From Escherichia coli (GTDB lineage Bacteria; Pseudomonadota; Gammaproteobacteria; Enterobacterales; Enterobacteriaceae), in the NCBI RefSeq assembly GCF_044647545.1, contig NZ_CP172818.1: a stretch of DNA of 64,000 bases; one strand, 5' to 3'. Below the pieces are notes generated by a model that saw only the letters and a list, made by a program, of their open reading frames with translations, was not told the origin of the DNA and ran no database searches. Both the position numbers and the translations under genes were made by a program. Below, piece after piece: positions 14,717-38,744 of the stretch. Numbering within the stretch: the first letter of the stretch is position 1; each line of letters begins with the position of its first letter.

Positions 14717-14973
14717 CTTGTTCCCCTCTGGTTAGACATGGACGAAAGCTACTCTTACATGTGCAGACTATAGAGAAATAAAACCTGATTGAGTGAAAGG
14801 GTATCGGGTCAAAGAAACAAATATTGCACTACCGCACACTGCGAAAAGATTGTTGAACATCATTCAACAAAAAGGCGAAATACGGCGAATTAAATTTAAG
14901 CGGGTTCTTTTATCAGATTATCGTTGCTATTCGCAATTCATCGAAAACAGCCACAAAAACCAGGGGAATGTGA

Positions 14974-15575
14974 ATGAGTATAAAAAATCTACCTGCCGAC
15001 TATTTATTGGCTGCACAACAGGGTGATATCGATAAAGAAAAACCTGCCTTGCGCTGGGTGTCGATATTAATACCTGCGATCGTCAGGGGAAAACGGCAAT
15101 TACGCTGGCAAGTTTATATCAGCAATATGCTTGCGTTCAGGCATTAATTGATGCCGGAGCGGATATTAATAAGCAAGATCATACTGTTTAAATCCTTTTT
15201 TAATTAGCTGTCTGAACGATGATTTAACGCTACTACGAATTATTTTACCGGCTAACCCGATCTTAATTGCGTAACCCGTTTTGGCGGTGTCGGCCTGACG
15301 CCTGCCTGTGAAAAAGGCCATTTAAGTATTGTAAAAGAGCTTTTGGCGCATACGGAAATTAACGTTAACCAGACCAACCATGTAGGCTGGACGCCGCTAC
15401 TGGAAGCGATTGTGCTTAATGATGGCGGTATTAAACAGCAGGCGATTGTCCAGTATTGCTGGAACATGGTGCCAGTCCGCATCTGACGGATAAATATGGC
15501 AAAACGCCGCTGGAACTGGCGCGGGAACGGGGCTTTGAAGAGATTGCGCAGTTACTGATTGCCGCAGGCGCATAA
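14974..15575 (+). pseudogene. yahD: Ankyrin-repeat protein gene with about four 1-bp deletions
   Basis: ATG at 14974 reads MSIKNLPADYLLAAQQGDIDK then stops; ankyrin-repeat peptide segments recur in shifted frames up to TAA at 15573-15575; span is 602 bp, not a multiple of 3. Confidence 0.65.
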
Positions 15576-15585
15576 CCCGGGAGGC

Positions 15586-16465
15586 TTGCTATCAACACAC
15601 CAGAAAGACGGTGTGTGTGGGCCGCAACTGCGGATGCGGGATTTTCTGGCGCAGCGGGGGCAAGGACAGGTTGAACAGGTCTTTGCCAGAGCGGTAAATA
15701 TCGCACTCCCGGCCGCCAGCAGTTGCTGACGCTGCTTTGTGAAGAGTACGACAATGCGCCAAACAGTTGTCGGTTGGCATCACTCACTTTGATGTCTTTC
15801 GGCATGGTGATAAGGTTCAGTTTGACGATCAAGGCATTACGGTTGGTCAACATCTTCATATAGAGATACGAGTCGTTGTCGGCGTTGGCTGTCCCCAACC
15901 TTGCAAATGACCGCTGTGAATTTTCACCTTATCGCCTGGCTACAGTGGCACGACATTATTCATCAGCACCTGGGGGAAAATGAAACCCTGTTTAATTATC
16001 GCGGCGATAATCCGTTTTATCAGGCGTTAGGTAAAGAATTACATATTAAACGACGGGCAGTTATTCAGGCCGTAAACGATAAACAAAATATCGCCTCAGC
16101 GGTCGCCAGTATGATGGGGTTAGGGATTGGCCTTACGCCATCAGCCGACGATTATTTAACAGGTCTGGCGCTTATTTTATTTATTCCCGGCATCCGGCGG
16201 AAAAATACAAAGAGGAATTTTATCTCGGTCTGCAACGCGGCAAAAATAATACCACATTATTAAGTGCCATAACGCTGGAAGCCGCATTACAACAACGCTG
16301 CCGGGAAAATATTCATCGTTTTATTCACAACATTATTTATGACATCCCTGGGAAAAACCCCGAACTCAGGCAATAGAAAAAATTAAACATATTGGCTCCA
16401 GTTCCGGCTGCGACATGCTGTATGGCATGGCCGATGGTTGTGCGCTGAGCCAAACCTACGGAGGG
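15586..16465 (+). pseudogene. yahE: yahE-like gene, frame fragmented; boundaries approximate
   Basis: Only a 120-aa fragment (track ORF 15901..16263) survives between yahD and yahF; position matches yahE. Confidence 0.35.
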
Positions 16466-16469
16466 AATT

Positions 16470-18009
16470 ATGTCAGTTAAAATAGTCATTAAACCGAATA
16501 CCTATTTTGATTCTGTCTCGCTGATGTCTATCTCCACGCGTGCAAATAAACTCGACGGCGTCGAGCAGGCATTTGTGGCGATGGCGACCGAAATGAATAA
16601 AGGCGTGCTGAAGAATTTAGGACTGCTGACGCCGGAGCTGGAGCAGGCGAAAAACGGCGACCTGATGATTGTCATCAATGGTAAATCGGGTGCGGACAAC
16701 GAGCAGTTGCTGGTGGAGATTGAAGAACTGTTCAACACCAAAGCGCAAAGCGGCTCGCACGAGGCGCGTTACGCCACTATTGGCAGCGCCAAAAAGCATA
16801 TCCCGGAAAGTAACCTGGCGGTGATTTCGGTCAACGGTCTGTTTGCCGCTCGCGAAGCGCGTCAGGCGCTGCAAAACGATCTCAACGTGATGCTGTTTTC
16901 CGATAACGTCTCAGTTGAAGATGAACTGGCGCTCAAGCAACTGGCCCACGAAAAAGGGCTGCTGATGATGGTTAGACTGTGGCACGGCGATTATCAACGG
17001 CGCGGCGCTCTGTTTTGGTAACGCCGTGCGTCGCGGCAACATCGGTATTGTTGGCGCATCCGGCACCGGCAGTCAGGAGTTGAGCGTCCGCATTACTTAA
17101 TTTGGCGGCGGCGTTTCGCAACTGATCGGCACCGGCGGGCCAGCCTGAGCGAGAAATTGGCGGCCTGATGATGCTCGACGCCATCGGGATGCTGGAAAAC
17201 GATCCGCAAACTGAAATCATTGCGCTTATCTCCAAACCGCCTGCGCCTGCGGTGGCCCGCAAAGTGCTGGAACGTGCGCGCGCCTGCCGCAAGCCGGTGG
17301 TCGTCTGCTTCCTCGATCGTGGCGAAACGCCAGTGGATGAGCAGGGGCTACAGTTTGCCCGCGGCACCAAGAGGCAGCGCTAAAAGCGGTGATGCTCTCC
17401 GGCGTGAAACAGGAAAATCTCGACCTGCATACGCTTAACCAGCCGTTGATTGCGGATGTGCGTGCGCGTCTGCAACCGCAGCAGAAATACATTCGTGGCC
17501 TGTTCTGCGGCGGCACGCTGTGCGACGAAACCATGTTCGCGGTGATGGAAAAACATGGCGATGTCTACAGCAACATTCAGCCCGATCCGGAATTCCGCCT
17601 GAAAGATATCAACCGCAGCATCAAACACACCTTCCTCGACTTTGGCGATGACGACTTCACCAACGGCAAGCCGCACCCGATGATTGACCCCACCAACCGC
17701 ATCAGTCGCTTGATCGAAGAGGCGCGCGATCCAGAAGTGGCGGTGATCATGGATTTTGTGCTCGGATTTGGATCGCATGAAGATCCGGTCGGCTCCACCA
17801 TCGAGACGATCAAAGAAGCGAAAGCGATCGCCGCTGCCGAAGGACGCGAGTTGATCATTCTCGCCTATGTGCTGGGTACCGATCTTGATACGCCATCGTT
17901 AGAACAACAAAGCCAGATGCTGCTTGATGCCGGAGTGATTCTGGCGAGCAGCAGCACCAATACCGGATTGCTGGCGCGTGAATTTATCTGCAAAGGGGAG
18001 GAAGCCTGA
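16470..18009 (+). pseudogene. yahF: Succinyl-CoA synthetase alpha-like (CoA-binding) protein gene, split into at least 3 frames
   Basis: Track ORFs 16470..17021, 17168..17383 and 17389..18009 lie in frames 0, 2 and 1 and read as consecutive parts of one protein. Confidence 0.65.
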
Positions 18010-19427
18010 TGAGCCAGTCACTGTTTAGCCAACCATTGAACGTTATTAACGTCGGCATCGCCATGTTTAGCGATGACCTGAAAAAGCAGCATGTAGAAGT
18101 GACTCAACTCGACGGGACGCCGCCGGGGCAGGGCAATATGCAGGTGGTGCAGGCGCTGGATAACATTGCCGATCTTGCCGCTGGCGGACAAAATCGCCGC
18201 CGCTAACCAGCAGGCGCTGGAGCGTATTATCCAGTCGCATCCGGTGCTGATTGGTTTTGATCAGGCGATTAACGTGGTGCCGGGCATGACGGCGAAAACC
18301 ATTCTTCACGCCGGGCCGCCGATCACCTGGGAAAAAATGTGCGGCGCGATGAAAGGCGCGGTCACCGGAGCGCTGGTGTTCGAAGGACTGGCGAAGATCT
18401 CGACGAGGCGGCTGAACTGGCGGCTTCCGGGGAGATCACCTTCTCGCCGTGTCACGAGCACGACTGTGGGATCGATGGCGGGTGTTACCTCGGCCTCGAT
18501 GTTTATGCACATCGTAAAAAACAAAACCTACGGCAACATCGCTTATACCAACATGAGCGAGCAGATGGCGAAGATTTTGCGTATGGGCGCTAACGACCAG
18601 AGCGTGATTGACCGCCTGAACTGGATGCGTGATGTGCAGGGACCAATACTGCGCGACGCGATGAAAATTATCGGCGAAATCGATCTGCGCTTAATGCTGG
18701 CGCAGGCGCTGCGGATAGGGCGATGAGCGCCATAACCGCAATAACGCCGGGACGACACTGCTGATTCAGGCGCTGACGCCGGGGATTATTCAGGCGGGTT
18801 ATTCCGTCGAGCAACAGCGCGAAGTGTTTGAGTTTGTCGCCAGCAGCGACTACTTCTCCGGCCCGACGTGGATGGCGATGTGTAAAGCGGCGATGGATGC
18901 GGCGCATGGCATCGAATACAGCACCGCGGTCACCACCCATGGCGCGTAACGGCGTCGAGTTCGGCATGCGGGTCAGCGGCCTGCGGGGTAATGGTTCAAC
19001 CGGCCCGGCGCAGCAGGTGATCGGCCCGATGTTTGCCGGTTATAAGCCGGAAGATTCGGGGCTGGATATCGGCGACAGCGCCATCACCGAAACCTACGGT
19101 ATTGGCGGATTTGCTATGGCGACCGCGCCCGCTATCGTCGCGCTGGTGGGCGGCACGGTGGAAGAAGCTATTGATTTCTCCCGTCAGATGCGCGAAATCA
19201 CCCTCGGTGAAAACCCCAACGTCACCATTCCGCTGCTCGGTTTTATGGGCGTGCCGTCGGCAATCGACATCACCCGCGTGGGTAGCAGCGGCATTCTGCC
19301 GGTGATCAACACCGCCATCGCCCATAAAGATGCGGGCGTCGGCATGATTGGCGCGGGCATTGTGCATCCACCTTTTGCCTGCTTCGAGAAAGCCATTCTT
19401 GGCTGGTGCGAACGTTACGGCGTCTGA
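18009..19427 (+). pseudogene. yahG: yahG-like (DUF1116) gene with an internal +1 frame segment
   Basis: Track ORFs 18009..18206 (frame 0), 18166..18726 (frame 1) and 18828..19427 (frame 0); total span 1419 bp, a multiple of 3. Confidence 0.6.
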
Positions 19428-19440
19428 CCTACATGTTCAT

Positions 19441-19799
19441 GCCGGATGCGGCGTGAACGCCTTATCCGGCCTACGAATGGCGCAAGAATCTGTAGGCCTG
19501 ATAAGCGTAGCGCATCAGGCATTTGTCACCATTGCCGGATGCGGCGTGAACGCCTTATCCGGCCTACGAATGGCGCAAGAATCTGTAGGCCTGATAAGCG
19601 TAGCGCATCAGGCATTTGCCACCACTGCCGGATGCGGCGTGGACGCCTTATCCGGCCTACGAGTGGCGCGAGAATCTGTAGGCCTGATAAGCGTAGCGCA
19701 TCAGGCATTTGTCACCATTGCCGGATGCGGCGTGAACGCCTTATCCGGCCTACGAGTGGCGCGAGAATTGTAGGCCTGATAAGCGTAGCGCATCAGGCA
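19441..19799. repeat. BIME/REP array, about 3.9 tandem units of 93 bp, each with two REP palindromes
   Basis: Units begin at 19441, 19534, 19627 and 19720 with near-identical sequence GCCGGATGCGGCGTGAACGCCTTATCCGGCCTAC...GTAGGCCTGATAAGCGTAGCGCATCAGGC. Confidence 0.85.
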
Positions 19800-19848
19800 G
19801 TCTGGCGTTGGTCATAACCCCATCACCCTCTGTAGCGGACATAACAAC

Positions 19849-20803
19849 ATGAAAGAGCTTGTGGTCGTTGCCAATGGTGGCAACAGCATTATAGAAAGAT
19901 AACGCCAGCCAGTCGATTGAGCATCAGGCGGAGGCGGTGAAAGCCGTGGCCGATACGGTGCTGGAAATGCTGGCTTCCGATTACGACGTGCTGACCCACG
20001 GTAACGGGCCGCAGGTCGGCTAAGATACGCCGTGCGGAGATTGCCCACGAGCGCGAAGGGCTGCCCTTAACGCCGCTGGCGAACTGTGTGGCAGATACGC
20101 AGGGCGGCATCGGCTATCTGATCCAACAGGCGCTGAATAACCGGCTGGCGCGTCACGGCGAGAAAAAAGCCGTCACCGTGGTAACTCAGGTGGAAGTGGA
20201 TAAAAACGATCCAGGTTTTGCCCATCCACCAAGCCCATTGGTGCATTCTTCAGTGAAAGCCAGCGTGACAAACTACAAAAGGCAAACCCTGACTGGTGTT
20301 TTGTTGAAGATGCCGGACGGGGCTATCGCCGCGTGGTCGCCTCGCCGGAACCGAAACGTATTGTCGGCACCACCATCGCGCGCTGGAGAGATCCAACAAG
20401 GTTTTGTCGTAATTGGCGCGGGCGGCGGTGGAATTCCGGTAGTGCGTACTGAAGCGGGGGATTACCAGAGCGTGGACGCGGTTATTGACAAAGATCTCTC
20501 TACCGCGCTGCTTGTCGCCGTGAAATTCACGCCGACATTCTGGTGATCACCACCGGCGTCGAAAAAGTCTGTATCCACTTTGGTAAACCGCAGCAGCAGG
20601 CGCTGGATCGGGTGGATATTGCCACCATGACTCGCTATATGCAGGAAGGGCATTTTCCGCCCGGCGGCGTGTTGCCAAAAATCATCGCCAGCCTGACGTT
20701 CCTGGAGCAGGGCGGCAAAGAAGTGATTATCACCACGCCGGAATGCCTGCCTGCGGCGCTGCGCGGTGAAACGGGCACCCATATTCTAAACGTAAGGACG
20801 TAG
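19849..20803 (+). pseudogene. yahI: Carbamate kinase-like gene, frameshifted
   Basis: ATG at 19849 reads MKELVVVANGGNSIIER then stops; downstream fragments (track ORFs 20088..20546 and 20543..20803) carry carbamate kinase-like sequence in other frames. Confidence 0.6.
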
Positions 20804-20804
20804 G

Positions 20805-22214
20805 ATGAAAGAAAGCAATAGCCGCCGTGAATTTCTGAGCCAGAGCGGTAAGATGGTCACCGCCGCCGCGCTGTTCGGTACCTCTTTGCCGCTCGCCCAT
20901 GCGGCGGTAGCTGGCACCCTAAACTGCGAAGCGAACAACACCATGAAAATCACTGACCCGCATTACTATCTCGATAACATGCTGCTGGAAACCGGTTTTG
21001 ACTACGAAAACGGTGTGGCGGTGCAGACCCGCACGGCGCGCCAGACCGTGGAGATTCAGGACGGCAAAATTGTCGCCCTGCGCGAGAACAAGCAGCATCC
21101 GGACGCCACGCTGCCGCACTATGACGCTGGCGGTAAGTTGATGCTACCCACCACTCGCGACATGCATATTCATCTCGACAAAACCTTCTACGGCGGGCCG
21201 TGGCGCTCGCTCAATAGTCCGGCAGGCACCACTATCCAGGACATGATCAAGCTTGAGCAGAAAATGCTGCCGGATTACAACCGTATACGCAGGAGCGGGC
21301 GGAAAAACTGATCGATCTATTGCAGTCGAAAGGCACCACCATTGCCCGCAGCCACTGCAATATCGAACCGGTTTGCCGGCCTAAAAAATCTGCAAAATTT
21401 GCAGGCGGTGCTGGCGCGGCGTCGGGCCAGCTCGAGTGTGAAATCGTCGCCTTCCCGCAGCACGGTTTGCTGCTGTCGAGATCGGAACCCTTAATGCGCG
21501 AAGCGATGCAGGCGGGTGCGCATTACGTCGGCGGGCTGGACCCGACCAGTGTCGATGGCGCGATGGAAAGATCCCTCGACACCATGTTTCAGATTGCGCT
21601 GGACTACGACAAAGGTGTCGATATTCACCTGCACGAAACCACTCCATCAGGGCGTGGCAGCCATCAATTATATGGTTGAAACGGTAGAGAAAACGCCGCA
21701 ACTGAAAGGTAAGCTGACCATCAGCCACGCCTTTGCGCTGGCTACGCTCAACGAACAACAGGTCGATGCGCTCGGCGAATCGGATGGCGGCGCAGCAAAT
21801 TTCTATCGCCCTGACGGTGCCGATTGGCACGCTGCATATGCCGCTCAAACAGTTGCACGACAAAGGCGTAAAAGTGATCACTGGCACTGACAGCGTTATC
21901 GACCACTGGTCGCCTTATAGTATCGGCGACATGCTGGAAAAAGCCAATCTCTACGCGCAGCTCTATATTCGTCCTAACGAACAGAACCTCTCCCGTTCGC
22001 TGTTTCTAGCCACTGGCGATATATTGCCGCAATGAAAAAGGCGAGCGTGTATGGCCAAAAGCGCAGGATGATGCCAGCTTTGTGCTGGTGGACGCCTCCT
22101 GTTCCGCCGAGGCGGTGGCGCGTATCTCGCCGAGAACCGCAACGTTCCATAAAGGGCAACTGGTGTGGGGGAGTGTGGCAGGTTGATGCGCATTTGAAAC
22201 GCCTGCAACGGTGA
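20805..22214 (+). pseudogene. yahJ: Amidohydrolase/deaminase-family gene, split into at least 4 frames
   Basis: Track ORFs 20805..21311, 21320..21679, 21516..21890, 21733..22035 and 22032..22214 read as consecutive pieces; metal-binding HxH motif in the first piece. Confidence 0.55.
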
Positions 22215-22563
22215 ATTGTAAAGAGATTTAAGCCCCAGGGAGTGGGGCAATCTGAATATGAGTGTGTCGGCAGAAATGGACATTATCTTTGAGGAATATG
22301 CCCTTATTGACGTTGTGTAGATAACTATTTGTCTACGTGAAAAGATCATCAGTTTTGCCGATTTTAGTCTTTTACAGATAGCAAATATCACACTTACAGG
22401 CGCTCGCCTTATGGGGAACGTTGCTGCTCTGTTTCATTCAGGCTCGCGGCATGTTGGGGCTGGATCGGGTGGTTTAAATATTGGCTATATTCAATGGACG
22501 CGTTTTGCCGCGATGACATATCAGGCGTTGCCAAATACACATAGCTAATCAGGAGTAAACACA

Positions 22564-23613
22564 ATGAAGATCAAAGCTGTTGGTGCATATTCCGCTAAAC
22601 AACCACTTGAACCGATGGATATCACCCGGCGTGAACCGGGACCGAATGATGTCAAAATCGAAATCGCTTACTGTGGCGTTTGCCATTCCGATCTCCACCA
22701 GGTCCGTTCCGAGTGGGCGGGGACGGTTTACCCCTGCGTGCCGGGTCATGAAATTGTGGGGCGTGTGGTAGCCGTTGGTGATCAGGTAGAAAAATATGCG
22801 CCGGGCGATCTGGTCGGTGTCGGCTGCATTGTCGACAGTTGTAAACATTGCGAAGAGTGTGAAGACGGGTTGGAAAACTACTGTGATCACATGACCGGCA
22901 CCTATAACTCGCCGACGCCGGACGAACCGGGCCATACTCTGGGCGGCTACTCACAACAGATCGTCGTTCATGAGCGATATGTTCTGCGTATTCGTCACCC
23001 GCAAGAGCAGCTGGCGGCGGTGGCTCCTTTGTTGTGTGCAGGGATCACCACGTATTCGCCGCTACGTCACTGGCAGGCCGGGCCGGGTAAAAAAGTGGGC
23101 GTGGTCGGCATCGGCGGTCTGGGACATATGGGGATTAAGCTGGCCCACGCGATGGGGGCACATGTGGTGGCATTTACCACTTCTGAGGCAAAACGCGAAG
23201 CGGCAAAAGCCCTGGGGGCCGATGAAGTTGTTAACTCACGCAATGCCGATGAGATGGCGGCTCATCTGAAGAGTTTCGATTTCATTTTGAATACAGTAGC
23301 TGCGCCACATAATCTCGACGATTTTACCACCTTGCTGAAGCGTGATGGCACCATGACGCTGGTTGGTGCGCCTGCGACACCGCATAAATCGCCGGAAGTT
23401 TTCAACCTGATCATGAAACGCCGTGCGATAGCCGGTTCTATGATTGGCGGCATTCCAGAAACTCAGGAGATGCTCGATTTTTGCGCCGAACATGGCATCG
23501 TGGCTGATATAGAGATGATTCGGGCCGATCAAATTAATGAAGCCTATGAGCGAATGCTGCGCGGTGATGTGAAATATCGTTTTGTTATCGATAATCGCAC
23601 ACTAACAGACTGA
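22564..23613 (+). CDS. yahK: Zn-dependent NADPH aldehyde reductase (MDR family)
   Basis: ORF track 22564..23613, 349 aa; GHEIVG zinc motif and GIGGLG Rossmann motif; AGGAG upstream. Confidence 0.9.
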   Translation: MKIKAVGAYSAKQPLEPMDITRREPGPNDVKIEIAYCGVCHSDLHQVRSEWAGTVYPCVPGHEIVGRVVAVGDQVEKYAPGDLVGVGCIVDSCKHCEECEDGLENYCDHMTGTYNSPTPDEPGHTLGGYSQQIVVHERYVLRIRHPQEQLAAVAPLLCAGITTYSPLRHWQAGPGKKVGVVGIGGLGHMGIKLAHAMGAHVVAFTTSEAKREAAKALGADEVVNSRNADEMAAHLKSFDFILNTVAAPHNLDDFTTLLKRDGTMTLVGAPATPHKSPEVFNLIMKRRAIAGSMIGGIPETQEMLDFCAEHGIVADIEMIRADQINEAYERMLRGDVKYRFVIDNRTLTD

Positions 23614-23851
23614 AAAAATTAATAAATACCCTGTGGTTTAACATATTAACTTCGTTCTCCACTTAACTTTTTAGTTAAGGAGAGCGAAATAATATCAAAG
23701 TAGCAGTAAAACCTATAACGTAAATTTAAATTGTTAAATTAACGCCCTCCAGTACACAATACTTCACACGTTAGTTATGAGCGATTTCTGATAGTGCCTG
23801 GTTTAATCAGAGCTTTATTATCTGCGACGTTTATTTTTATTTAGAGATCGC

Positions 23852-24662
23852 GATGATATCATTAAAAGCTCCGCACAATAATTTGATGCCATATACGCAA
23901 CAAAGCATACTTAATACGGTTAAAAACAATCAGTTACCAGAGGATATCAAAAGCGCCTGGTTTCCTGTGTCGATATATTCAAGGTTTTGATTAAACAATA
24001 TTATGATTATCCTTATGATTGTCGTGATGATTTAGTCGATGACGACAAACTCATTCATCTCATGGCTGCCGTACGAGACTGTGAGTGGTCAGACGATAAC
24101 GCACTCACCATAAATGTGCAGTTTAATGATTTCCCTGGATTTTATGACTGGATGGATTACCCTGATCACCCGGTTAGGGTTACTTCATACTTGAAAATCA
24201 AAAAGGGACAGTTTGGGTATATGACCAGGATGATGCGTTTCTTGATATTAAAGCAAACGTGCAGGCTGGACGCTTTACCGGGCTTAAGAAATTAGTGCAG
24301 TTTATCGATTCAGTGCGAACAGATTGCAAATGTATTCTTCTTGAATACCATATGCCTTTGCTGAGAATTTTCCCTAAAGGGAAAGAGTGTATGCATGTGG
24401 AAAAATGGCTTCGCGAAATGTCGTCTATTCCGGAGACAGACGCGCCCATTAAGCAGGCGCTTGCGCATGGATTATTATTACACTTAAAAAATATCTACCC
24501 TGTTTTCCTGAATCACTGGTGATGTTATTGCTCTCTGTTCTGGACGTAAAAACATACAGAGATGATGCGCGATTAAATGAATGGATATCTAATAGAGTGC
24601 AGGAATTAGGTGACAGATATTATCCTGTAAATAAGCACGTTAAAATCCGCTACACTCTTTAG
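23852..24662 (+). pseudogene. yahL: yahL-like gene, frameshifted; boundaries approximate
   Basis: ATG at 23852 stops after about 45 codons; track ORFs 23987..24295 and 24259..24522 continue in other frames. Confidence 0.4.
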
Positions 24663-25176
24663 TTCAGAAAGGGTTCCACCTGCAAGTTGTTATTCCACCT
24701 GAGAGTGAATCGCAATGCAGGTAATCATTTCATCTGTATATCTGTATGCCAACTGGCATTCCATCTCTTTTTTCGCCGATATTTTGTGTGATCGGCGACA
24801 CTTCGCTTAAAAAAGCACCAGTAGTGGTTTCGCAGCCATGCGGTGTATAAAAAATGATCTCATGCAGATGTTTTGTGAATGTGTTGGTTGACATTCATAT
24901 GAAAAAAATCATAATTCCATCATGTTTGTGTGGGGTCTTTTCTGTATCTTACGCATCGCACTCAAGCCTGACAGAAAATATGCTGTAAGGCTCATATAAA
25001 AAACGCCATTAGCTCATCAGGAAGAGCAGACGACAACCAGGATTGTTGTATGGTACGGGGTTCGAGGCCTCGATGGCGGTCCAACTTTCAAAACTCTTCT
25101 GAATCAGATCCCCTTATTATCATCCCTGCAAAGTGGAACATTGCCATTGTTTGGCTATTCAGGATGGGGCAGACCA

Positions 25177-25356
25177 ATGAAAAAAGCCCACACAGGGGAG
25201 AGTGGGCTGAAATGGGAAGCTAAAGACTCAAGTAAACTTATCGGAAATAAGGACCACGCATCAGGGGCTATCATCGCCGATGGCCGTGATTCGGCAAATC
25301 AGGTTGATTACGTAGAGAGTAAATTATCTGCTCACCGCTGCGTCACCCCTTCGTAA
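25177..25356 (+). CDS. Small hydrophilic ORF (59 aa from ATG) in the yahM position; identity uncertain
   Basis: Part of track ORF 25141..25356; promoter-like TTGACA-N17-ATAATT at 24888-24916 lies upstream. Confidence 0.2.
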   Translation: MKKAHTGESGLKWEAKDSSKLIGNKDHASGAIIADGRDSANQVDYVESKLSAHRCVTPS

Positions 25357-26003
25357 ATCAGGCGTAGCGCGAATACACCAATAATTGCACCAATAACCCG
25401 ACTGGCAACGCGTTGCATACGCCCATAAGCACGACGCACAGCGGGCAAAGAAAACGCCTGACTAAGAAAAACTCGCCAGATAATTGATGCGAGCACAATC
25501 CCCGCCCAGGCCATTAAACGTGCCCATGTTGGTGTTTCGGCATTTAATGTTACTGAGAAAATACTGATAAAAAATAAAACGGTTTGCGGGTTAGAGAGAT
25601 CGGTAATTAATCCGCGGCGAAAAAAGACATACCAGGGGGCGCTAATCGGTTGTTGTAGTGTGCTCATTTGCGGTGTTGACTGGCGGCGCATGCTGCACCA
25701 CGCAAACCATAAGAGATAAGCGCCGCCGACGATTCTGATAAGCGAAAAAATCTCCTCACACTGCGTAATTAGCGTTGCAAGACCAAACAAACCCAACCCG
25801 GAATAAAATGCATCGCCCAGCGCCACGCCCAGCCCGGTCAGCACCCCTGCGCGTCGACCGGAAGCCAGGCTGGTTTGTACTACCACAAAGAGATTGGCTC
25901 CCGGATTAAAAAAAGTAATCACGAACAGTCCTACGGTCAGGTAAACGGCATGCAAAGGATCCATAGTGATTTCATCCATAAATAAGTGAACTAACTGCAT
26001 CAT
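25332..26003 (-). CDS. yahN: LysE/RhtB-family amino acid exporter
   Basis: ORF track 25332..26003, 223 aa, multi-TM. Confidence 0.85.
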   Translation of the reverse strand: MMQLVHLFMDEITMDPLHAVYLTVGLFVITFFNPGANLFVVVQTSLASGRRAGVLTGLGVALGDAFYSGLGLFGLATLITQCEEIFSLIRIVGGAYLLWFAWCSMRRQSTPQMSTLQQPISAPWYVFFRRGLITDLSNPQTVLFFISIFSVTLNAETPTWARLMAWAGIVLASIIWRVFLSQAFSLPAVRRAYGRMQRVASRVIGAIIGVFALRLIYEGVTQR

Positions 26004-26149
26004 ATTTCTACCAAAAATAATCGGGTGCGAGAGAGATCACAAAGTGTCTTATTTCCGGTTACTGGCGTTTATGCCCTGACTGAACTAATTATTAATCAAC
26101 CCAATAATGTGGGTGGGTGATAGTGTGATAACAACTCTGGAGCCGTAAT

Positions 26150-26425
26150 ATGAAAATAATCTCTAAAATGTTAGTCGGTGCGTTAGCGTTAGCCGTTACC
26201 AATGTCTATGCCGCTGAATTGATGACCAAAGCGGAATTTGAAAAAGTTGAATCGCAGTATGAAAAAATAGGTGATATTTCAACCAGCAATGAAATGTCGA
26301 CTGCAGATGCAAAAGAAGATTTGATCAAAAAAGCGGATGAAAAAGGGGCTGATGTGTTGGTACTGACCTCCGGTCAAACTGACAATAAGATCCACGGCAC
26401 GGCAAATATTTATAAGAAGAAGTAA
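26150..26425 (+). CDS. yahO: Small secreted protein (YdgH/BhsA/McbA-like, DUF1471)
   Basis: ORF track 26150..26425, 91 aa, signal peptide [21 protein letters not shown]. Confidence 0.8.
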
Positions 26426-26522
26426 TTCTGAATCCTATGTAAACATCTCCGATGCGTAAGTTTATCGGTGATCATCTATTGAAATTTATGCCGGATAAAG
26501 CGTTCGCGCTGCATTCGGCAGT

Positions 26523-28109
26523 TCAGCTTTTCAGCCGCCGCCAGAACGTCGTCCGGCTGATGCCTAAATAATTCGCCGCTGCTGTTTTATCGCCATTAAA
26601 TTTCTCCAGTGCCTGTTGTGGTGTCAGTAAGCGTGGAGCGGGAGTTTTCGCCGACTCGCGCGCCAGTTCCGGCAGTAGCAGTTGCATAAACTGCGGCGTT
26701 AAATCCGGCGTCGGTTCCACACTTAAAAACAGCGCCAGTCGTTCCATCATATTGCGCAGTTCACGAATATTGCCTGGCCAGTCGTAGTGCAGCAGCACAG
26801 TTTCACTTGCCTGTAACCCCTGGCGTAATGCAGCAGAAAATGGGGCGGAGAGCGCCGCCAGAGACACTTTCAAAAAGCTTTCCGCCAGCGGAAGAATATC
26901 CGCCACCCGCTCGCGCAGTGGTGGCAATTGCAGACGCAAAATACTCAGCCGATAAAACAGATCACGGCGAAAACGTCCTTGCTGCATATCTTCTTCCAGA
27001 TTGCAGTGAGTGGCGCTAATGACCCGTACATCTACCGGAACAGGCTGATGCCCGCCGACGCGGGTGACCTCTTTTTCTTCCAGCACCCGCAGCAGCCGGG
27101 TCTGCAAAGGTAGCGGCATTTCGCCAATCTCATCCAGAAACAGCGTACCGCCGTGGGCAATTTCGAACAGCCCGGCGCGACCTCCGCGTCGCGAGCCGGT
27201 AAACGCCCCTTCCTCATAGCCAAACAGTTCTGCTTCCAGCAGCGATTCGGCAATCGCCCCGCAGTTGACGGCAACAAACGGATGCGACTTTTTGCCCTGT
27301 CGCGCATCGTGGCGGGCAAAATATTCCCGATGAATCGCCTGGGCCGCCAGCTCTTTGCCCGTCCCCGTTTCCCCCTCAATCAACACCGCCGCACTGGAGC
27401 GGGCATACAGCAAAATAGTCTGCCGTACTTGTTCCATCTGTGGTGATTGACCGAGCATATCGCCCAGCACGTAACGAGTACGCAGGGCGTTGCGGGTGGC
27501 ATCGTGAGTGTTATGGCGTAACGACATGCGCGTCATATCCAGCGCATCGCTGAACGCCTGGCGCACGGTGGCGGCGGAATAGATAAAAATTCCGGTCATT
27601 CCGGCTTCTTCTGCCAAATCGGTAATCAGCCCTGCGCCGACCACCGCTTCGGTGCCGTTAGCTTTTAGCTCGTTAATCTGCCCGCGTGCGTCTTCCTCGG
27701 TAATGTAGCTACGTTGGTCGAGGCGCAAATTAAAGGTTTTTTGAAACGCCACCAGCGCTGGAATGGTTTCCTGATAGGTGACAACGCCGATAGAAGAGGT
27801 GAGTTTTCCGGCTTTTGCCAGTGCCTGTAACACATCGTAGCCGCTCGGTTTAATCAAAATAACTGGCACTGACAGGCGGCTTTTCAGGTACGCGCCGTTA
27901 GAGCCAGCCGCGATGATGGCGTCACAGCGTTCGTTTGCCAGTTTCTTGCGGATGTAGGTCACTGCTTTTTCAAAGCCAAGCTGAATAGGGGTAATGTTCG
28001 CCAGGTGATCAAACTCGAGGCTGATATCGCGAAACAGCTCGAACAGGCGCGTTACAGATACCGTCCAGATAACCGGTTTGTCGTCATTAAGCCGTGGTGG
28101 ATGTGCCAT
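26523..28109 (-). CDS. prpR: Sigma-54-dependent activator of the propionate operon (AAA+ enhancer-binding protein)
   Basis: ORF track 26523..28121; ATG at 28109; GAFTGA motif and Walker A GETGTGKE present. Confidence 0.9.
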
Positions 28110-28285
28110 AGCGCACCGCAAAGTTAAGAAACCGAATATTGGGTTTAGTCTTGTTTCATAATTGTTGCAATGAAACGCGGTGAAACATTGCCTGAAACGT
28201 TAACTGAAACGCATATTTGCGGATTAGTTCATGACTTTATCTCTAACAAATTGAAATTAAACATTTAATTTTATTAAGGCAATTG

Positions 28286-28301
28286 TGGCACACCCCTTGC
28301 T
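28286..28301 (+). promoter_or_regulatory. Sigma-54 (-24/-12) promoter TGGCAC-N5-TTGCT upstream of prpB
   Basis: TGGCACACCCCTTGCT read directly about 47 bp upstream of the prpB ATG; matches RpoN consensus. Confidence 0.65.
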
Positions 28302-28347
28302 TTGTCTTTATCAACGCAAATAACAAGTTGATAACAAAGGATGGGCT

Positions 28348-29304
28348 ATGTCTCTACACTCTCCAGGTAAAGCGTTTCGCGCTGCACTGACTAAAGAAAA
28401 TCCATTGCAGATTGTTGGCACCATCAACGCTAATCATGCGCTGTTGGCGCAGCGTGCCGGATATCAGGCAATTTATCTTTCTGGCGGTGGCGTGGCGGCA
28501 GGTTCGCTGGGGCTGCCCGATCTCGGTATTTCTACCCTTGATGATGTGCTGACCGACATTCGCCGTATCACCGACGTTTGTTCGCTGCCGCTGCTGGTGG
28601 ATGCGGATATCGGTTTTGGTTCTTCGGCCTTTAACGTGGCGCGCACCGTGAAATCGATGATTAAAGCCGGTGCGGCAGGATTGCATATTGAAGATCAGGT
28701 TGGTGCGAAACGCTGCGGTCATCGTCCGAATAAAGCGATCGTCTCGAAAGAAGAGATGGTGGATCGGATCCGCGCGGCGGTGGATGCGAAAACCGATCCT
28801 GATTTTGTGATCATGGCGCGCACCGATGCTCTGGCGGTAGAGGGGCTGGATGCGGCGATCGAGCGTGCGCAGGCCTATGTTGAAGCGGGTGCCGAGATGT
28901 TGTTCCCGGAGGCGATTACCGAACTCGCCATGTACCGCCAGTTTGCCGATGCGGTGCAGGTGCCGATCCTCGCCAATATTACCGAATTTGGCGCAACACC
29001 GCTGTTTACTACCGATGAATTACGCAGTGCCCATGTTGCAATGGCGCTGTACCCGCTTTCAGCGTTTCGCGCCATGAACCGCGCCGCCGAACATGTCTAC
29101 AACGTCCTGCGTCAGGAAGGCACGCAGAAAAGCGTCATCGACACCATGCAAACCCGCAACGAGCTGTACGAAAGCATCAATTACTACCAGTACGAAGAGA
29201 AGCTCGACGACCTGTTTGCCCGTAGCCAGGCGAACCCCCCCCCCCCCCCCCACAACGAAAAATATCTCGACCCTACAAAAAAAAAAATGACGAGGACAAT
29301 ATGA
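28348..29304 (+). CDS. prpB: 2-methylisocitrate lyase; the C-terminus runs through a C17 tract, giving an aberrant tail
   Basis: ORF track 28348..29304, 318 aa; sequence is lyase-like up to FARSQ, then [24 protein letters not shown] encoded by the homopolymer region. Confidence 0.7.
29235..29251. repeat. Homopolymer tract C17, followed by A11 at 29277-29287
   Basis: Counted directly in the sequence. Confidence 0.9.
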
Positions 29305-30468
29305 GCGACACAACGATCCTGCAAAACAGTACCCATGTCATTAAACCGAAAAAATCGGTAGCACTTTCTGGCGTTCCGGCGGGCAATACGGCGCTCTGCA
29401 CCGTGGGTAAAAGTGGCAATGACTTGCATTACCGTGGTTACGATATTCTTGATCTGGCGGAACATTGCGAATTTGAAGAAGTGGCGCATCTGCTGATCCA
29501 CGGCAAACTGCCGACCCGTGACGAACTCGCCGCCTACAAAACGAAACTGAAAGCCCTGCGCGGTTTACCGGCTAACGTGCGTACCGTGCTGGAAGCCTTA
29601 CCGGCGGCGTCGCACCCGATGGATGTTATGCGCACCGGCGTTTCCGCGCTCGGCTGCACGCTGCCAGAAAAAGAGGGGCATACCGTCTCTGGCGCGCGGG
29701 ATATTGCCGACAAACTGCTGGCGTCACTTAGCTCGATTCTTCTCTACTGGTATCACTACAGCCACAACGGCGAACGCATTCAGCCGGAAACCGATGACGA
29801 CTCCATCGGCGGTCACTTCCTGCATCTGCTGCATGGCGAAAAGCCGTCGCAAAGCTGGGAAAAGGCGATGGAGATCCGCTGGTGCTGTACGCCGAACACG
29901 AGTTTAACGCCTCCACCTTTACCAGCCGGGTGATCCGGCGGGCACCGGCTCTGATATGTATTCCGCGATTATTGGCGCGATTGGTGCACTGCGCGGCTGA
30001 AGCACGGCGGGGCGAATGAAGTGTCGCTGGAGATCCAGCAACGCGACGAAACGCCGGACGAAGCCGAAGCCGATATCCGCAAGCGGGTGGAAAACAAAGA
30101 AGTGGTCATTGGTTTTGGTCATCCGGTTTATACCATCGCCGACCCGCGTCATCAGGTGATCAAACGTGTGGCGAAGCAGCTCTCGCAGAAGGCGGCTCGC
30201 TGAAGATGTACAACATCGCCGATCGCCTGGAAACGGTGATGTGGGAGAGCAAAAGATGTTCCCCAATCTCGACTGGTTCTCCGCTGTTTCCTACAACATC
30301 AGGGGCTTTCCCACCGAGACGTTCACCCCACTGTTTGTTATCGCCCGCGTCACCGGCTGGGCGGCGCACATTATCGAACAACGTCAGGACAACAAAATTA
30401 TCCGTCCTTCCGCCAATTATGTTGGACCGGAAGCACGCCCGTTTGTCGCGCTGGATAAGCGCCAGTAA
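29301..30468 (+). pseudogene. prpC: 2-methylcitrate synthase gene, split into at least 3 frames
   Basis: Track ORFs 29301..29933, 30021..30203 and 30166..30468 read as consecutive citrate synthase-family segments; span 1168 bp. Confidence 0.7.
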
Positions 30469-30501
30469 ACCTCTACGAATAACAATAAGGAAACGTACCC
30501 A

Positions 30502-31952
30502 ATGTCAGCTCAAATCAACAACATCCGCCCGGAATTTGATCGTGAAATCGTTGATATCGTCGATTACGTCATGAACTACGAAATCAGCTCCAAAGCAGCC
30601 TACGACACCGCCCATTACTGCCTGCTCGACACGCTCGGCTGCGGTCTTGAAGCTCTCGAATACCCGGCCTGTAAAAAACTGCTGGGGCCAATTGTCCCCG
30701 GCACCGTCGTCCCCAACGGCGCGCGCGTCCCCGGAACTCAGTTCCAGCTCGACCCCGTCCAGGCGGCATTTAACATCGGCGCGATGATCCGCTGGCTCGA
30801 TTTCAACGATACCTGGCTGGCGGCGGAGTGGGGCCATCCTTCCGACAACCTCGGCGGCATTCTGGTACGGCGGACTGGCTTTCGCGCAACGCGGTCGCCA
30901 GCGGCAAAGCGCCGTTGACCATGAAACAGGTGCTGACCGCAATGATCAAAGCCCATGAAATTCAGGGCTGCATCGCGCTGGAAAACTCCTTTAACCGCGT
31001 CGGCCTCGACCACGTTCTGTTAGTGAAAGTGGCTTCCACCGCCGTGGTCGCCGAAATGCTCGGCCTGACCCGCGAGGAAATTCTCAACGCCGTTTCGCTG
31101 GCGTGGGTGGACGGTCAGCCGCTGCGCACCTATCGCCATGCGCCGTAACACCGGCACGCGTAAATCCTGGGCGGCGGGCGATGCCACTTCCCGCGCGGTA
31201 CGTCTGGCACTGACGGCGAAAACGGGCGAAATGGGTTACCCGTCAGCCCTGACTGCGCCGGTGTGGGGCTTCTACGACGTCTCCTTTAAAGGTGAGTCGT
31301 TCCGCTTCCAGCGCCCGTACGGTTCCTACGTTATGGAAAATGTGCTGTTCAAAATCTCCTTCCCGGCGGAGTTCCACTCCCAGACGGCAGTTGAAGCAGC
31401 GATGACGCTCTATGAACAGATGCAGGCAGCAGGCAAAACGGCGGCGGATATCGAAAAAGTGACCATTCGCACCCACGAAGCCTGTATTCGCATCATCGAC
31501 AAAAAAGGACCGCTCAATAACCCGGCAGACCGCGATCACTGCATTCAGTACATGGTGGCGATCCCGCTGCTGTTCGGGCGCTTAACGGCGGCAGATTACG
31601 AGGACAACGTTGCGCAAGATAAACGCATCGACGCCCTGCGCGAGAAGATCAATTGCTTTGAAGATCCGGCATTTACCGCTGACTACCACGACCCGGAAAA
31701 ACGCGCCATCGCCAATGCCATTACCCTTGAGTTCACCGACGGACGCGATTTGAAGAAGTGGTGGTGGAGTACCCCATTGGTCATGCTCGCCGCCGTCAGG
31801 ATGGTATTCCGAAACTGGTCGATAAATTCAAAATCAATCTCGCGCGCCAGTTCCCGACTCGCCAACAGCAGCGCATTCTGGAGGTTTCTCTCGACAGAGC
31901 TCGCCTGGAACAGATGCCGGTCAATGAGTATCTCGACCTGTACGTCATTTAA
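30502..31952 (+). pseudogene. prpD: 2-methylcitrate dehydratase gene, split into at least 3 frames
   Basis: Track ORFs 30502..30918, 30828..31148, 31138..31956 and 31758..31952; span 1451 bp. Confidence 0.7.
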
Positions 31953-31990
31953 GTAAACGGCGGTAAGGCGTAAGTCAACAGGAGACCATT

Positions 31991-33871
31991 ATGTTTTAGC
32001 GAATTTTATCAGCGTTCGATTAACGAACCGGAGCAGTTCTGGGCCGAGCAGGCCGTGTATTGACTGGCAGACGCCCTTTACGCAAACGCTCGATCACAGC
32101 AATCCGCCGTTTGCCCGTTGGTTTTGTGAAGGCTGAACCAACTTGTGCACAACGCTATCGACCGCTGGCTGGAGAAACAGCCAGAGGCGCTGGCGCTGAT
32201 TGCCGTCTCTTCGGAAACAGAAGAAGAGCGCACCTTTACCTTTCGTCAGCTGCATGACGAAGTGAACGCGGTGGCCTCAATGTTGCGTTCATTGGGCGTG
32301 CAGCGTGGCGATCGGGTGCTGGTGTATATGCCGATGATTGCCGAAGCGCATATTACTCTGCTGGCCTGCGCGCGCATTGGCGCTATTCACTCGGTGGTGT
32401 TTGGGGGATTTGCCTCGCACAGCGTGGCGGCGCGAATTGATGATGCTAAACCGGTGCTGATTGTCTCGGCTGATGCCGGAGCGCGCGGTGGCAAAATCAT
32501 TCCCTATAAAAAATTGCTCGACGATGCGATAAGTCAGGCGCAGCACCAGCCACGCCATGTTTTGCTGGTGGATCGCGGGCTGGCGAAAATGGCGCGCGTC
32601 AGCGGGCGGGATGTCGATTTCGCGTCGTTGCGCCATCAACACATCGGCGCGCGGGTACCGGTGGCGTGGCTGGAATCCAACGAAACCTCCTGCATTCTCT
32701 ACACCTCCGGCACGACCGGCAAACCTAAAGGCGTGCAGCGTGACGTCGGCGGATATGCGGTGGCGCTGGCGACCTCGATGGACACCATTTTTGGCGGCAA
32801 AGCGGGCGGTGTGTTCCTTTGTGCTTCGGATATCGGCTGGGTGGTGGGGCGTTCTATATCGTCTACGCGCCGCTGCTGGCGGGGATGGCGACTATCGTTT
32901 ACGAAGGATTACCGACCTGGCCGGACTGCGGCGTGTGGTGGAAAATCGTCGAGAAATATCAGGTTAGCCGGATGTTCTCAGCGCCGACCGCCATTCGCGT
33001 GCTGAAAAAATTCCCTACCGCTGAAATTCGCAAACACGATCTCTCGTCGCTGGAAGTGCTCTATCTGGCTGGAGAACCGCTGGACGAGCCGACCGCCAGT
33101 TGGGTGAGCAATACGCTGGATGTGCCGGTGATCGACAACTACTGGCAGACCGAATCCGGCTGGCCGATTATGGCGATTGCTCGCGGTCTGGACGACAGGC
33201 CGACGCGTCTGGGAAGCCCCGGTGTGCCGATGTATGGCTATAACGTGCAGTTGCTTAATGAAGTCACCGGCGAACCGTGTGGCGTCAACGAGAAAGGGAT
33301 GCTGGTGGTGGAAGGGCCGCTGCCGCCGGGGTGTATTCAGACCATCTGGGGCGACGACGGCCGCTTTGTGAAGACTTACTGGTCGCTGTTTTCCCGCCCG
33401 GTGTACGCCACCTTTGACTGGGGCATCCGTGACGCTGACGGTTATCACTTTATTCTCGGGCGCACTGACGATGTGATTAACGTTGCCGGGCATCGGCTGG
33501 GGACGCGCGAGATTGAAGAGAGTATCTCCAGCCATCCGGGCGTTGCCGAAGTGGCGGTGGTTGGGGTGAAAGATGCGCTGAAAGGGCAGGTGGCGGTGGC
33601 GTTTGTCATTCCGAAAGAGAGCGACAGTCTGGAAGATCGTGATGTGGCGCACTCGCAAGAGAAGGCGATTATGGCGCTGGTGGACAGCCAGATTGGCAAC
33701 TTTGGCCGCCCGGCGCACGTCTGGTTTGTCTCGCAATTGCCAAAAACGCGATCCGGAAAAATGCTGCGCCGCACGATCCAGGCGATTTGCGAAGGACGCG
33801 ATCCTGGAGATCTGACGACCATTGATGATCCTGCGTCGTTGGATCAGATCCGCCAGGCGATGGAAGAGTAG
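31991..33871 (+). pseudogene. prpE: Propionyl-CoA synthetase gene, frameshifted
   Basis: ATG at 31991 followed by TTT TAG; track ORFs 32145..33005 and 32819..33871 carry acyl-CoA synthetase sequence in different frames. Confidence 0.7.
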
Positions 33872-33876
33872 GTTAT

Positions 33877-34050
33877 TGTCGGATGCGTCGCGCGGCGCAT
33901 CCGGCACTGGTGCCGATGCCTGATGCGACGCTGACGCGTCTTATCATGCCTACGGACCTGAACCGTAGGTCGGATAAGGCGCTCGCGCCGCATCCGACAC
34001 CATGCTCAGATGCCTGATGCGACGCTGACGCGTCTTATCAGGCCTACCCA
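33877..34050. repeat. BIME cluster of about 4 REP palindromes between prpE and codB
   Basis: Repeated GCCTGATGCGACGCTGACGCGTCTTATCAGGCCTAC-type palindromes read directly. Confidence 0.7.
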
Positions 34051-34117
34051 CTGTTTTTACACCGATAATTTTTCCCCCACCTTTTTGCACTCATTCATAT
34101 AAAAAATATATTTCCCC

Positions 34118-34135
34118 ACGAAAACGATTGCTTTT
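34118..34135. promoter_or_regulatory. PUR-box-like sequence ACGAAAACGATTGCTTTT upstream of codB
   Basis: About 12 of 16 matches to the ACGCAAACGTTTGCGT PurR consensus; codBA is purine-regulated in E. coli. Confidence 0.3.
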
Positions 34136-34199
34136 TATCTTCAGATGAATAGAATGCGGCGGATTTTTTGGGTTTCAAACAGCAAAAAGGGGGAATTTC

Positions 34200-35455
34200 G
34201 TGTCGCAAGATAACAACTTTAGCCAGGGGCCAGTCCCGCAGTCGGCGCGGAAAGGGGTATTGGCATTGACGTTCGTCATGCTGGGATTAACCTTCTTTTC
34301 CGCCAGTATGTGGACCGGCGGCACTCTGGAACCGGTCTTAGCTATCATCAATTCTTTCCTCGCAGTTCTCATCGGTAATCTTCTCCTCGGTATTTACACT
34401 TGATTTCTCGGTTACATTGGCGCAAACCGGCCTGACCACTCATCTTCTTGCTCGCTTCTGGTTTGGTGTTAAAGGCTCATGGCTGCCTTCACTGCTACTG
34501 GGCGGAACTCAGGTTGGCTGGTTTGGCGTCGGTGTGGCGATGTTTGCCATTTCGGTGGGTAAGGCAACCGGGCTGGATATTAATTTGCTGATTGCCGTTT
34601 CCGGTTTACTGATGACCGTCACCGTCTTTTTTGGCATTTGGCGCTGACGGTTCTTTCGGTGATTGCGGTTCCGGCTATCGCCTGCCTGGGCGGTTATTCC
34701 GTGTGGCTGGCTGTTAACGGCATGGGCGGCCTGGACGCATTAAAAGCGGTCGTTCCCGCACAACCGTTAATTTCAATCTCGCGCTGGCGCTGGTTGTGGT
34801 CATTTTCTGGTGGGTACGCTCGCCGCTGGCGCCTTTTGTCCGGTTTGGTCGCAATGCCAAACTGGCGGTGCTGGTGGCGATGGTGGCCTTTTTCCTCGGC
34901 AACTGGTTGATGTTTATTTTCGGTGCAGCGGGCGCTGCGGCACTGCGCATGGCGGATATCTCTGATGTGATGATTGCTCAGGGCCTGCTGCTGCCTGCGA
35001 TTGTGGTGCTGGGGCTGAATATCTGGACCACCAACGATAACGCACTCTATGCGTCGGGTTTAGGTTTCGCCAACATTACCGGGATGTCGAGCAAAACCCT
35101 TTCGGTAATCAACGGTATTATCGGTACGGTCTGCGCATTATGGCTGTATAACAATTTTGTCGGCTGGTTGACCTTCCTTTCGGCAGCTATTCCTCCAGTG
35201 GGTGGCGTGATCATCGCCGACTATCTGATGAACCGTCGCCGCTATGAGCACTTTGCGACCACGCGTATGATGAGTGTCAATTGGGTGGCGATTCTGGCGG
35301 TCGCCTTGGGGATTGCTGCAGGCCACTGGTTACCGGGAATTGTTCCGGTCAACGCGGTATTAGGTGGCGCGCTGAGCTATCTGATCCTTAACCCGATTTT
35401 GAATCGTAAAACGACAGCAGCAATGACGCATGTGGAGGCTAACAGTGTCGAATAA
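34200..35455 (+). pseudogene. codB: Cytosine permease gene, split into 4 frame segments
   Basis: Track ORFs 34200..34403, 34417..34647, 34638..34910 and 34796..35455 read as consecutive permease segments; span 1256 bp. Confidence 0.7.
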
Positions 35456-36728: not shown

Positions 36729-36750
36729 ACGACTGGGTTACAGCGAGCTT

Positions 36751-37150
36751 AGTTTATGCCGGATGCGGCGTGAACGCCTTATCCGGCCTACGTAGAGCAC
36801 TGAACTCGTAGGCCTGATAAGCGTAGCGCATCAGGCAATTCCAGCCGCTGATCTGTGTCAGCGGCTACCGTGATTCATTCCCGCCAACAACCGCGCATTC
36901 CTCCAACGCCATGTGCAAAAATGCCTTCGCAGCGGCTGTCTGCCAGCTGTAGTTTATGCCGGATGCGGCGTGAACGCCTTATCCGGCCTACGTAGAGCAC
37001 TGAACTCGTAGGCCTGATAAGCGTAGCGCATCAGGCAATTCCAGCCGCAGACCTGTGTCAGCGGCTACCGTGATTCATTTCCGCCAACAACCGCGCATTT
37101 ATCCAACGCCATGTGCAAAAATGCCTTCGCGGCGGCTGTCTGCCAGCTAT
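36751..37150. repeat. Tandem direct duplication, 2 x 200 bp at about 97% identity, each copy holding a REP element, a hairpin and the last ~85 bp of cynR
   Basis: Copy 1 at 36751..36950 and copy 2 at 36951..37150 aligned by eye; about 6 mismatches. Confidence 0.85.
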
Positions 37151-38732: not shown

Positions 38733-38744
38733 CCTTATTTTTAA

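Follow-up and report, generated by a model that had tools for sequence, protein, structure and literature searches.

The REP23 BIME array between yahG and yahI of Escherichia coli: a known repeat of variable copy number and a probable relic beside frameshifted yah genes

The repeat array and its setting

The 64-kb stretch of Escherichia coli DNA considered here (the window) aligns collinearly with positions 320137-386535 of E. coli K-12 MG1655 at an identity of 95.8-98.4%, and it is from this collinearity that the genes on either side of the array are assigned as yahG and yahI. The array lies downstream of the yahG stop codon (19425-19427) and upstream of the yahI start (19849), and the whole of the intervening 421-nt spacer is 100% identical to that of K-12 MG1655 and of strain 08-00022. 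It corresponds to the cluster of eight hairpin-forming REPs that is catalogued in E. coli as REP23/"yahH", and is not new; at the level of sequence, its homology to K-12 REP23 is settled by the 100% identity. The K-12 locus has been named 'yahH (filled with REP23 sites)' (PMC11551758), and X002 of EHEC EDL933 has been equated with yahH and described as 'five sequence repeats', a REP element and a member of the BIME group (PMC4765031). In K-12, yahH (b0322) is annotated inside the yahG-yahI spacer, and RefSeq carries a 'protein YahH'. The preliminary description of the window had placed a BIME array between yahG and yahI, which is borne out by the tandem array itself and by the collinearity with MG1655; the array is real and was both correctly located and correctly typed. 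It is an ordinary intergenic repeat with a copy number that varies between strains. The literature already covers the element with its repeat structure and its variable number of units, as well as the doubtful yahH reading frame, and the locus carries little weight as a discovery.

Tandem Repeats Finder reports a single array with a period of 93, 3.9 copies, 96% matches, no indels and a score of 664, one of two tandem arrays that score at least 80 in the whole 64-kb window. The four aligned units have a mean column identity of 95%. On the + strand, the unit reads 5' to 3' as T, a Y REP (GCCGGATGCGGCGTGAACGCCTTATCCGGCCTAC), a 17-nt linker, an inverted Z REP (GTAGGCCTGATAAGCGTAGCGCATCAGGCA) and an 11-nt linker (TTTGTCACCAT), so that the array holds four Y and four inverted Z REPs, eight in all, in strictly alternating orientation (Table 1). 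Each Y REP ends in GGCCTAC and each Z REP starts with GTAGGCC, and the hairpins have the usual internal mismatch. In the four-unit alignment, every variable column falls in a linker or in the Y loop, and none in any of the eight stems. The presence of two REPs of opposite orientation in each unit, as originally described, is confirmed by the unit alignment, the inverted repeats and the motif positions. The description as 4 x 93 bp is right in that there are four near-identical 93-bp units, but not in length: the linker of unit 4 measures 16 nt instead of the 17 nt of the others, and because this last unit lacks the trailing 11-nt linker, the array spans 360 bp (3.9 copies) and not 4 x 93 = 372 bp.

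Folding of the corresponding RNA yields a Y hairpin of -21.3 kcal/mol (z -4.7) and a Z hairpin of -12.9 kcal/mol. The complete 421-nt intergenic RNA reaches -194.5 kcal/mol (z -6.7), and 0 of 100 shuffled sequences were equally stable. A search of 18800-20400 for an intrinsic terminator or a terminator with a T-run returned none.

Table 1. Features of the yahG-yahI junction, in window coordinates
Feature	Position	Strand	Basis or remark
yahG (AllG/DUF1116 family), pseudogene	18009..19427	+	7 frameshifting indels vs K-12
Repeat-derived ORF, 'yahH' frame	19348..19773	+	ORF list, stop-free frame
12-nt spacer, yahG stop codon to first REP	19428..19439	+	sequence
BIME array (REP23 of K-12), 3.9 x 93-bp units, eight REPs	19440..19799	no strand	TRF, alignment, inverted repeats
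Y REP, unit 1 (CTAC at 3' end, + strand)	19441..19474	+	motif positions, inverted-repeat arms, folding
Remaining Y REPs	19534-19567, 19627-19660, 19720-19753		
17-nt tail-to-tail linker GAATGGCGCAAGAATCT, BIME-2-array type	19475..19491	+	unit alignment
Remaining tail-to-tail linkers	19568-19584, 19661-19677, 19754-19769 (16 nt)		
Short Z REP, unit 1 (GTAG at 5' end, + strand)	19492..19521	+	motif positions, inverted repeats, folding
Remaining Z REPs	19585-19614, 19678-19707, 19770-19799		
11-nt head-to-head linker TTTGTCACCAT	19522..19532	+	unit alignment
Remaining head-to-head linkers	19615-19625, 19708-19718		
Repeat-derived ORF, 372 nt (4 x 93)	19446..19817	+	counterpart of EHEC X002, 465 nt (5 x 93)
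K-12 b0322 equivalent	19453-19773		
PGAP 'protein YahH' equivalent	19477-19773		
Rfam RF02564 (naRNA4) match, head-to-head Z/Y pair	19495..19564	-	covariance-model score
Further RF02564 matches	19588-19657, 19681-19750	-	
yahI (carbamate kinase family), pseudogene	19849..20803	+	11 indels vs K-12

Two overlapping open reading frames run through the array because 93 nt equals 31 codons and two + frames of the unit are without a stop; in the consensus unit, the stop-free frames are two of the three on this strand. What closes the frames is either flanking sequence or a 1-nt deletion in unit 4. They had been reported as lying entirely inside the array and as artefacts of the repeat. As by-products of a 31-codon unit they do appear to be artefacts: comparison of three repeat ORFs with NCBIfam and Pfam gave only matches below the cut-offs, and no such ORF is annotated in 0- or 1-unit alleles. 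Neither, however, is confined to the array, since the 'yahH' frame starts 92 nt upstream of it, inside the 3' end of yahG, and the 372-nt frame extends 18 nt beyond it. It had also gone unrecognised that these frames are the historical yahH (b0322) and EHEC X002. Their status as artefacts is the majority view, contested by ribosome footprints on X002 (PMC4765031). The array thereby provides a clean example of how ORFs arise from a repeat length divisible by three and continue to be called by annotation pipelines ('protein YahH').

Unit number across strains and the state of the yah operon

Comparison of unit counts between strains, the check proposed in the preliminary description, shows that the number differs: complete E. 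coli genomes carry 0, 1, 2, 3, 4 or 5 units, with 1 and 4 the commonest. Among fetched sequences, SBF22 has none and a different small hairpin at the site, WWCOL-256 and EC958 (ST131) have one unit, 2022H047 has two, K-12 GM4792 has three, MG1655, 08-00022 and the window strain have four, and O157:H7 has five. In a systematic sample of 60 records, in which the count was read from the length of the matched place, about 16 had 4 units, 2 had 3, 2 had 2, 23 had 1, 6 had 0 and 2 had 5. Even K-12 assemblies differ, with four units in MG1655 (L003) and three in GM4792 (L001) through an exact 93-bp loss; this one-unit difference reflects either a recent event on a laboratory time scale or an assembly collapse in one of the two. 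The suggestion that the array can drive local recombination is essentially right, as unit number varies and as strain P276M has a deletion of ~315 bp that starts inside the array and runs from the unit-3 Z REP into yahI (locus L011, 2778-3040). In P276M, yahG is annotated with an internal stop. These observations agree with reports that, within one locus, tandem BIME copies are well conserved but strain-variable in number (PMC3333891) and that multi-copy BIMEs show length polymorphism (PMC1187871).

At this site, the REP-free allele (SBF22, L009 1279-1372; also L025 and L030) has another small palindrome, CCTTCTCCCTTTTGGGGAGAAGG, and the BIME therefore replaced that sequence or was replaced by it, and was not cleanly inserted. 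The natural series of 0 to 5 units at one operon junction offers ready-made alleles for testing whether the number of REP hairpins tunes the ratio of upstream to downstream expression.

The genes around the array are decayed in the window strain. Relative to K-12, the coding sequences of yahD, yahE, yahF and yahJ carry 4, 7, 5 and 6 indels, respectively, which together with those of yahG and yahI (Table 1) makes 40 in yahD/E/F/G/I/J. Further coding-sequence indels occur in yahL (3), xtpA (2), yahM (1), prpC (5), prpD (3), prpE (4), codB (9) and betA (1), and ~40 other genes of the window have none. The indel-bearing regions are 15000-22500, 24000-25300 and 29900-35000. In yahE/F/G, there are roughly as many indels as substitutions, a ratio that is unusual for natural decay. 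The coding-sequence indels of the window are shared by none of four E. coli strains in which they were sought. Among complete E. coli genomes, none exceeds 98.5% identity over the yahD-yahG segment (14800-19430), none of 100,044 species-representative genomes contains a 39-mer that spans window-specific indels, and no record exists of the truncated YahF and YahJ fragments. For LacZ and BetT, the window carries very common alleles. Because yahD-yahJ carry ~40 frameshifting indels, the array in this strain probably no longer regulates anything and is a relic.

Comparison with K-12 along the whole window also brought out several features away from the array. Patches 100% identical to MG1655 (18999-19873, 22221-23654, 25264-28976 and 34947-41577; up to 6.6 kb) are interleaved with stretches that are 2-6% diverged, a sharp mosaic attributable either to recent recombination or to a consensus or assembly effect. 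The last of these patches includes a 200-bp tandem duplication between codA and cynR (36746-37148; 2.0 copies, 96%), each copy of which contains a Y/short-Z REP pair and a further GC-rich hairpin, without difference from K-12. Of the intergenic stretches, the yaiL-frmB spacer (56209-56336, with a REP at ~56315) is the richest in indels relative to K-12; it has ~20 gaps, among them -25 and -7. At 60053-60055, the window lacks the IS2A insertion by which yaiX is split in K-12, and the alignment jumps from K-12 381250 to 382590.

Proposed function and competing explanations

As a whole, the locus is very probably a REP23 multi-copy BIME of the yahDEFG(H)IJ operon that acts as an RNA hairpin block and has probably become a relic in the window strain. 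In the origin suggested by the literature, a single REP pair would have been placed at the site by a REP-associated tyrosine transposase (RayT/TnpA-REP) and local amplification would have followed, through RayT-mediated strand transfer or through slippage or unequal recombination between 93-bp units. In strains that keep an intact operon, the array would be transcribed on the + strand together with yahG, and its RNA would fold into a run of stable hairpins. Such hairpins are predicted to block 3'->5' exonucleases, which would stabilise the upstream yahEFG message, and to attenuate transcription into yahIJ, partly through Rho. By analogy with characterised arrays, the most likely function is accordingly that of an intercistronic block of RNA hairpins, by which the upstream mRNA would be stabilised and read-through attenuated, and the array would be expected to favour yahEFG, which correspond to the oxamate-carbamoyltransferase-like AllH/AllF/AllG families, over yahIJ, a carbamate kinase and an amidohydrolase (Pfam names). 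The first hairpin, 12-13 nt past the yahG stop codon, may also be near enough to stall the terminating ribosome. Ribosomes are reported to stall when <=15 nt separate stop codon and REP (Liang et al. 2015, as cited in PMC12306157); the spacer measures 12 nt in the window, under this value, and 22 nt in the B2-type allele. At the DNA level, the Y REPs could serve as candidate gyrase sites.

The analogy is drawn chiefly from REP325, which makes the mRNA of upstream yjdM more stable and, in a partly Rho-dependent manner, attenuates transcription into yjdN, and from the genome-wide observation that tandem gene pairs split by a REP have a raised upstream/downstream expression ratio (bioRxiv 10.64898/2026.03.23.713779). 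The same study finds REP effects to be context-dependent and widely variable, which counts against the proposed function. So would the footprints on the EHEC allele, which, if they represent true translation, would abolish Rho-dependent attenuation there.

Several other explanations have to be set against the hairpin block. That the array is a neutral selfish repeat, functionless at this locus in any strain and drifting in unit number by slippage, is possible but doubtful. It would suit the common occurrence of 0- and 1-unit alleles in which the operon is intact, the death of the flanking genes in the window strain, and the weakness and variability of REP effects genome-wide. Yet the stems are invariant in the eight REPs and between strains while loops and linkers vary, the analogous REP325 measurably affects its operon, and the array lies within an 875-bp stretch (18999-19873) without any change from K-12 inside an otherwise decaying operon. 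Nor would a pure relic be predicted to leave 875 bp unchanged beside indel-rich coding sequence. Because the array and the 875 bp around it are unchanged amid ~40 frameshifts, there is a hint that it is kept for its own sake, independent of its neighbours, either as a chromosome- or RNA-level element or as a translated YahH/X002, although this is quite improbable. An interpretation of the perfect match as selection was not adopted, given that other patches identical to K-12 reach 6.6 kb and that the four-unit allele is widespread. It is very improbable that yahH/X002 is a genuine gene for a repetitive arginine-rich protein, the 'triple function' locus of Neuhaus et al., despite ribosome footprints over the 465-nt ORF in EHEC EDL933 (RPKM 56, coverage 0.61; PMC4765031) and the 'protein YahH' that RefSeq/PGAP still annotates in strains with 4 and 5 units. 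No single conserved frame that has a start signal and whose conservation is independent of the repeat was found. The two overlapping + frames are open only through the stop-free 31-codon unit, and annotations choose different frames and starts (GTG 19453, ATG 19477 and ATG 19446). Two of these candidate starts, 19446 and 19453, fall within the -21 kcal/mol Y hairpin and lack an upstream Shine-Dalgarno motif. The ORF lengthens in step with the number of units, is missing from 0/1-unit alleles (about half of the genomes) and has no family match above the cut-off, and all sequence variation falls in loops and linkers, which points to constraint on the palindromes. Reads from a sequence repeated several hundred-fold per genome and from nuclease-resistant hairpins could mimic footprints, and low weight is given to the EHEC claim since the sequence is highly repeated and forms stable hairpins.

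A role of the array transcript beyond the operon is harder to credit still. On the - strand, the three matches to RF02564 score 78, 72.4 and 78 bits, above the gathering score of 59.5, and REP325 RNA has been reported to bind HU and condense DNA (PMC4550694), so that the array might be thought a source of naRNA4-like nucleoid-associated RNAs that condense the chromosome with HU; this is exceedingly improbable. The matching strand is antisense to the yah operon, and the + strand of the array scores 53-54 bits, below the threshold. RF02564 also matches unrelated head-to-head REP pairs, at 33968-34044 on the + strand of the window in the prpE-codB spacer (75.4 bits) and in the phnE-phnD spacer, and therefore detects BIME pairs in general. 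Only one promoter-like site points antisense into the array, at consensus level: a sigma-70-like TCGACT-17-TATAAT inside the 5' end of yahI (19888-19916, - strand), which is a consensus match only, with 10/12 matches, and whose -10 hexamer arises from a 1-nt insertion at 19893 that is specific to the window. A DNA-level role as an architectural site that binds both gyrase and IHF, as had been supposed at the outset, is unlikely, and its two halves fare differently. Multi-copy BIMEs are enriched in gyrase cleavage sites, and most of these lie in REPs of the Y type (PMC6379681); the array carries four canonical Y REPs; by this analogy, these are candidate gyrase sites and gyrase binding is plausible. 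Against it stands the fact that cleavage is documented for only a subset of multi-copy BIMEs, with several large arrays lacking any (PMC6379681) and several of >280 bp, REP325 included, having 0 gyrase sites under ciprofloxacin (PMC6379681, supplement). The Topo-Seq tables of that study have no entry for the locus, and their BIME lists jump from 258 kb to 374 kb, a gap that we infer to be the argF-lac deletion of the strain used. As regards IHF, BIME-1 elements are bound by this protein, and the binding belongs to the L linker of single-copy BIME-1 (PMC3333891). The array linkers measure 17 and 11 nt against the ~35 nt of the L motif in real BIME-1s, and a search of the spacer for the IHF consensus WATCAANNNNTTR with 0 or 1 mismatch gave no match. 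The claim of IHF binding is thus not borne out: because the linkers are short and neither an L motif nor an IHF consensus is present, the sequence gives no reason to expect it at the array.

BIME type and comparison with known systems

The RNA hairpin block preferred here would be formed by an array that has the general features of a BIME, namely alternating REPs, short conserved linkers, an intergenic position and GTAG/CTAC at the foot of the palindromes. BIME-1 combines Y with z1 in a single copy and has a long L linker often containing an IHF site, BIME-2 combines Y with z2 in tandem copies with short linkers, and 'atypical' BIMEs are multi-copy chimeras in which motifs from BIME-1 are combined with those from BIME-2 (PMC3333891). 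With its period of 93, its 3.9 copies and its linkers of 17 and 11 nt, the array shows the tandem arrangement and short linkers of BIME-2. Its Z is the short form and is identical to that of two typical 97-bp BIME-1s of MG1655 (cueO-gcd and mscK-ybaM). The Z of the REPtron 5' BIME, which has been called y + z2 (PMC3333891), and those of REP325 and the K-12 mhpE-mhpT array are 7 nt longer. Since typical BIME-1s carry exactly the short Z and the Z of z2 elements is longer, the array Z is most likely Z1, the Z1/Z2 naming being read from the sequences of these reference elements. The opposite equation of the short Z with 'Z2' was rejected, as it is contradicted by the sequences of real BIME-1s, REPtron and REP325. 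If the Z is Z1, the array is formally, and most likely, an atypical, BIME-2-like BIME, in which Y and short Z, the palindromes of BIME-1, are joined by short linkers of BIME-2 type and present in tandem copies.

BIME-1 elements (RIB/RIP; cueO-gcd and mscK-ybaM of K-12) thus share with the array the same Y and short Z, placed tail to tail; they differ in being single-copy with a ~35-nt L linker that holds an IHF site, whereas the array is multi-copy (3.9 tandem copies) with a 17-nt linker and no IHF consensus. The BIME-2 between mhpE and mhpT of K-12 (4.4 x 101 bp) likewise has a Y REP and a tandem arrangement, and its linker, GGATGGCGCGAGAATTT, is near-identical to GAGTGGCGCGAGAATCT of the array, but it has the long Z where the yahG-yahI array has the short one. 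In the window, the mhpE-mhpT spacer (54195-54255) contains one degenerate REP only at the place of the 4.4 x 101-bp BIME-2 (Y + long Z) of K-12, which makes it a second BIME presence/absence polymorphism relative to K-12.

REP325 (naRNA1-6; yjdM-yjdN), the model multi-copy BIME-2, resembles the array in its alternating Y and Z REPs, in its 17-nt tail-to-tail and 11-nt head-to-head linkers, and in units that are 96% alike; the tail-to-tail linker of the array also resembles that of REP325, and both elements separate co-oriented genes within a single operon. The Z of REP325 is the long form, its period is 100 and it has 5.8 copies, in contrast to the short Z, period of 93 and 3.9 copies of the array. 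The orientation of the array relative to transcription is opposite to that of REP325, which counts against the analogy. REP325 also scores 95-111 bits with RF02564, compared with 72-78 bits for the array, and its naRNA4-sense strand is the transcribed strand, whereas that of the array is antisense.

The REPIN/RAYT system, in which REP doublets are dispersed by a domesticated IS200/IS605-like Y1 transposase, shares with the array the inverted REP pairs and the conserved GTAG, and rayT of E. coli is flanked by REP pairs of the same kind (PMC3333891). No rayT gene adjoins the array, and mobilisation here is putative. The closest counterparts are alleles of the same element. X002 of EHEC EDL933 is the five-unit allele, and REP23/yahH (b0322) of MG1655 lies at the same locus with the same sequence and the same four units as in the window; the array itself shows no difference from it, and what differs is the flanking yah genes, which are frameshifted pseudogenes in the window strain.
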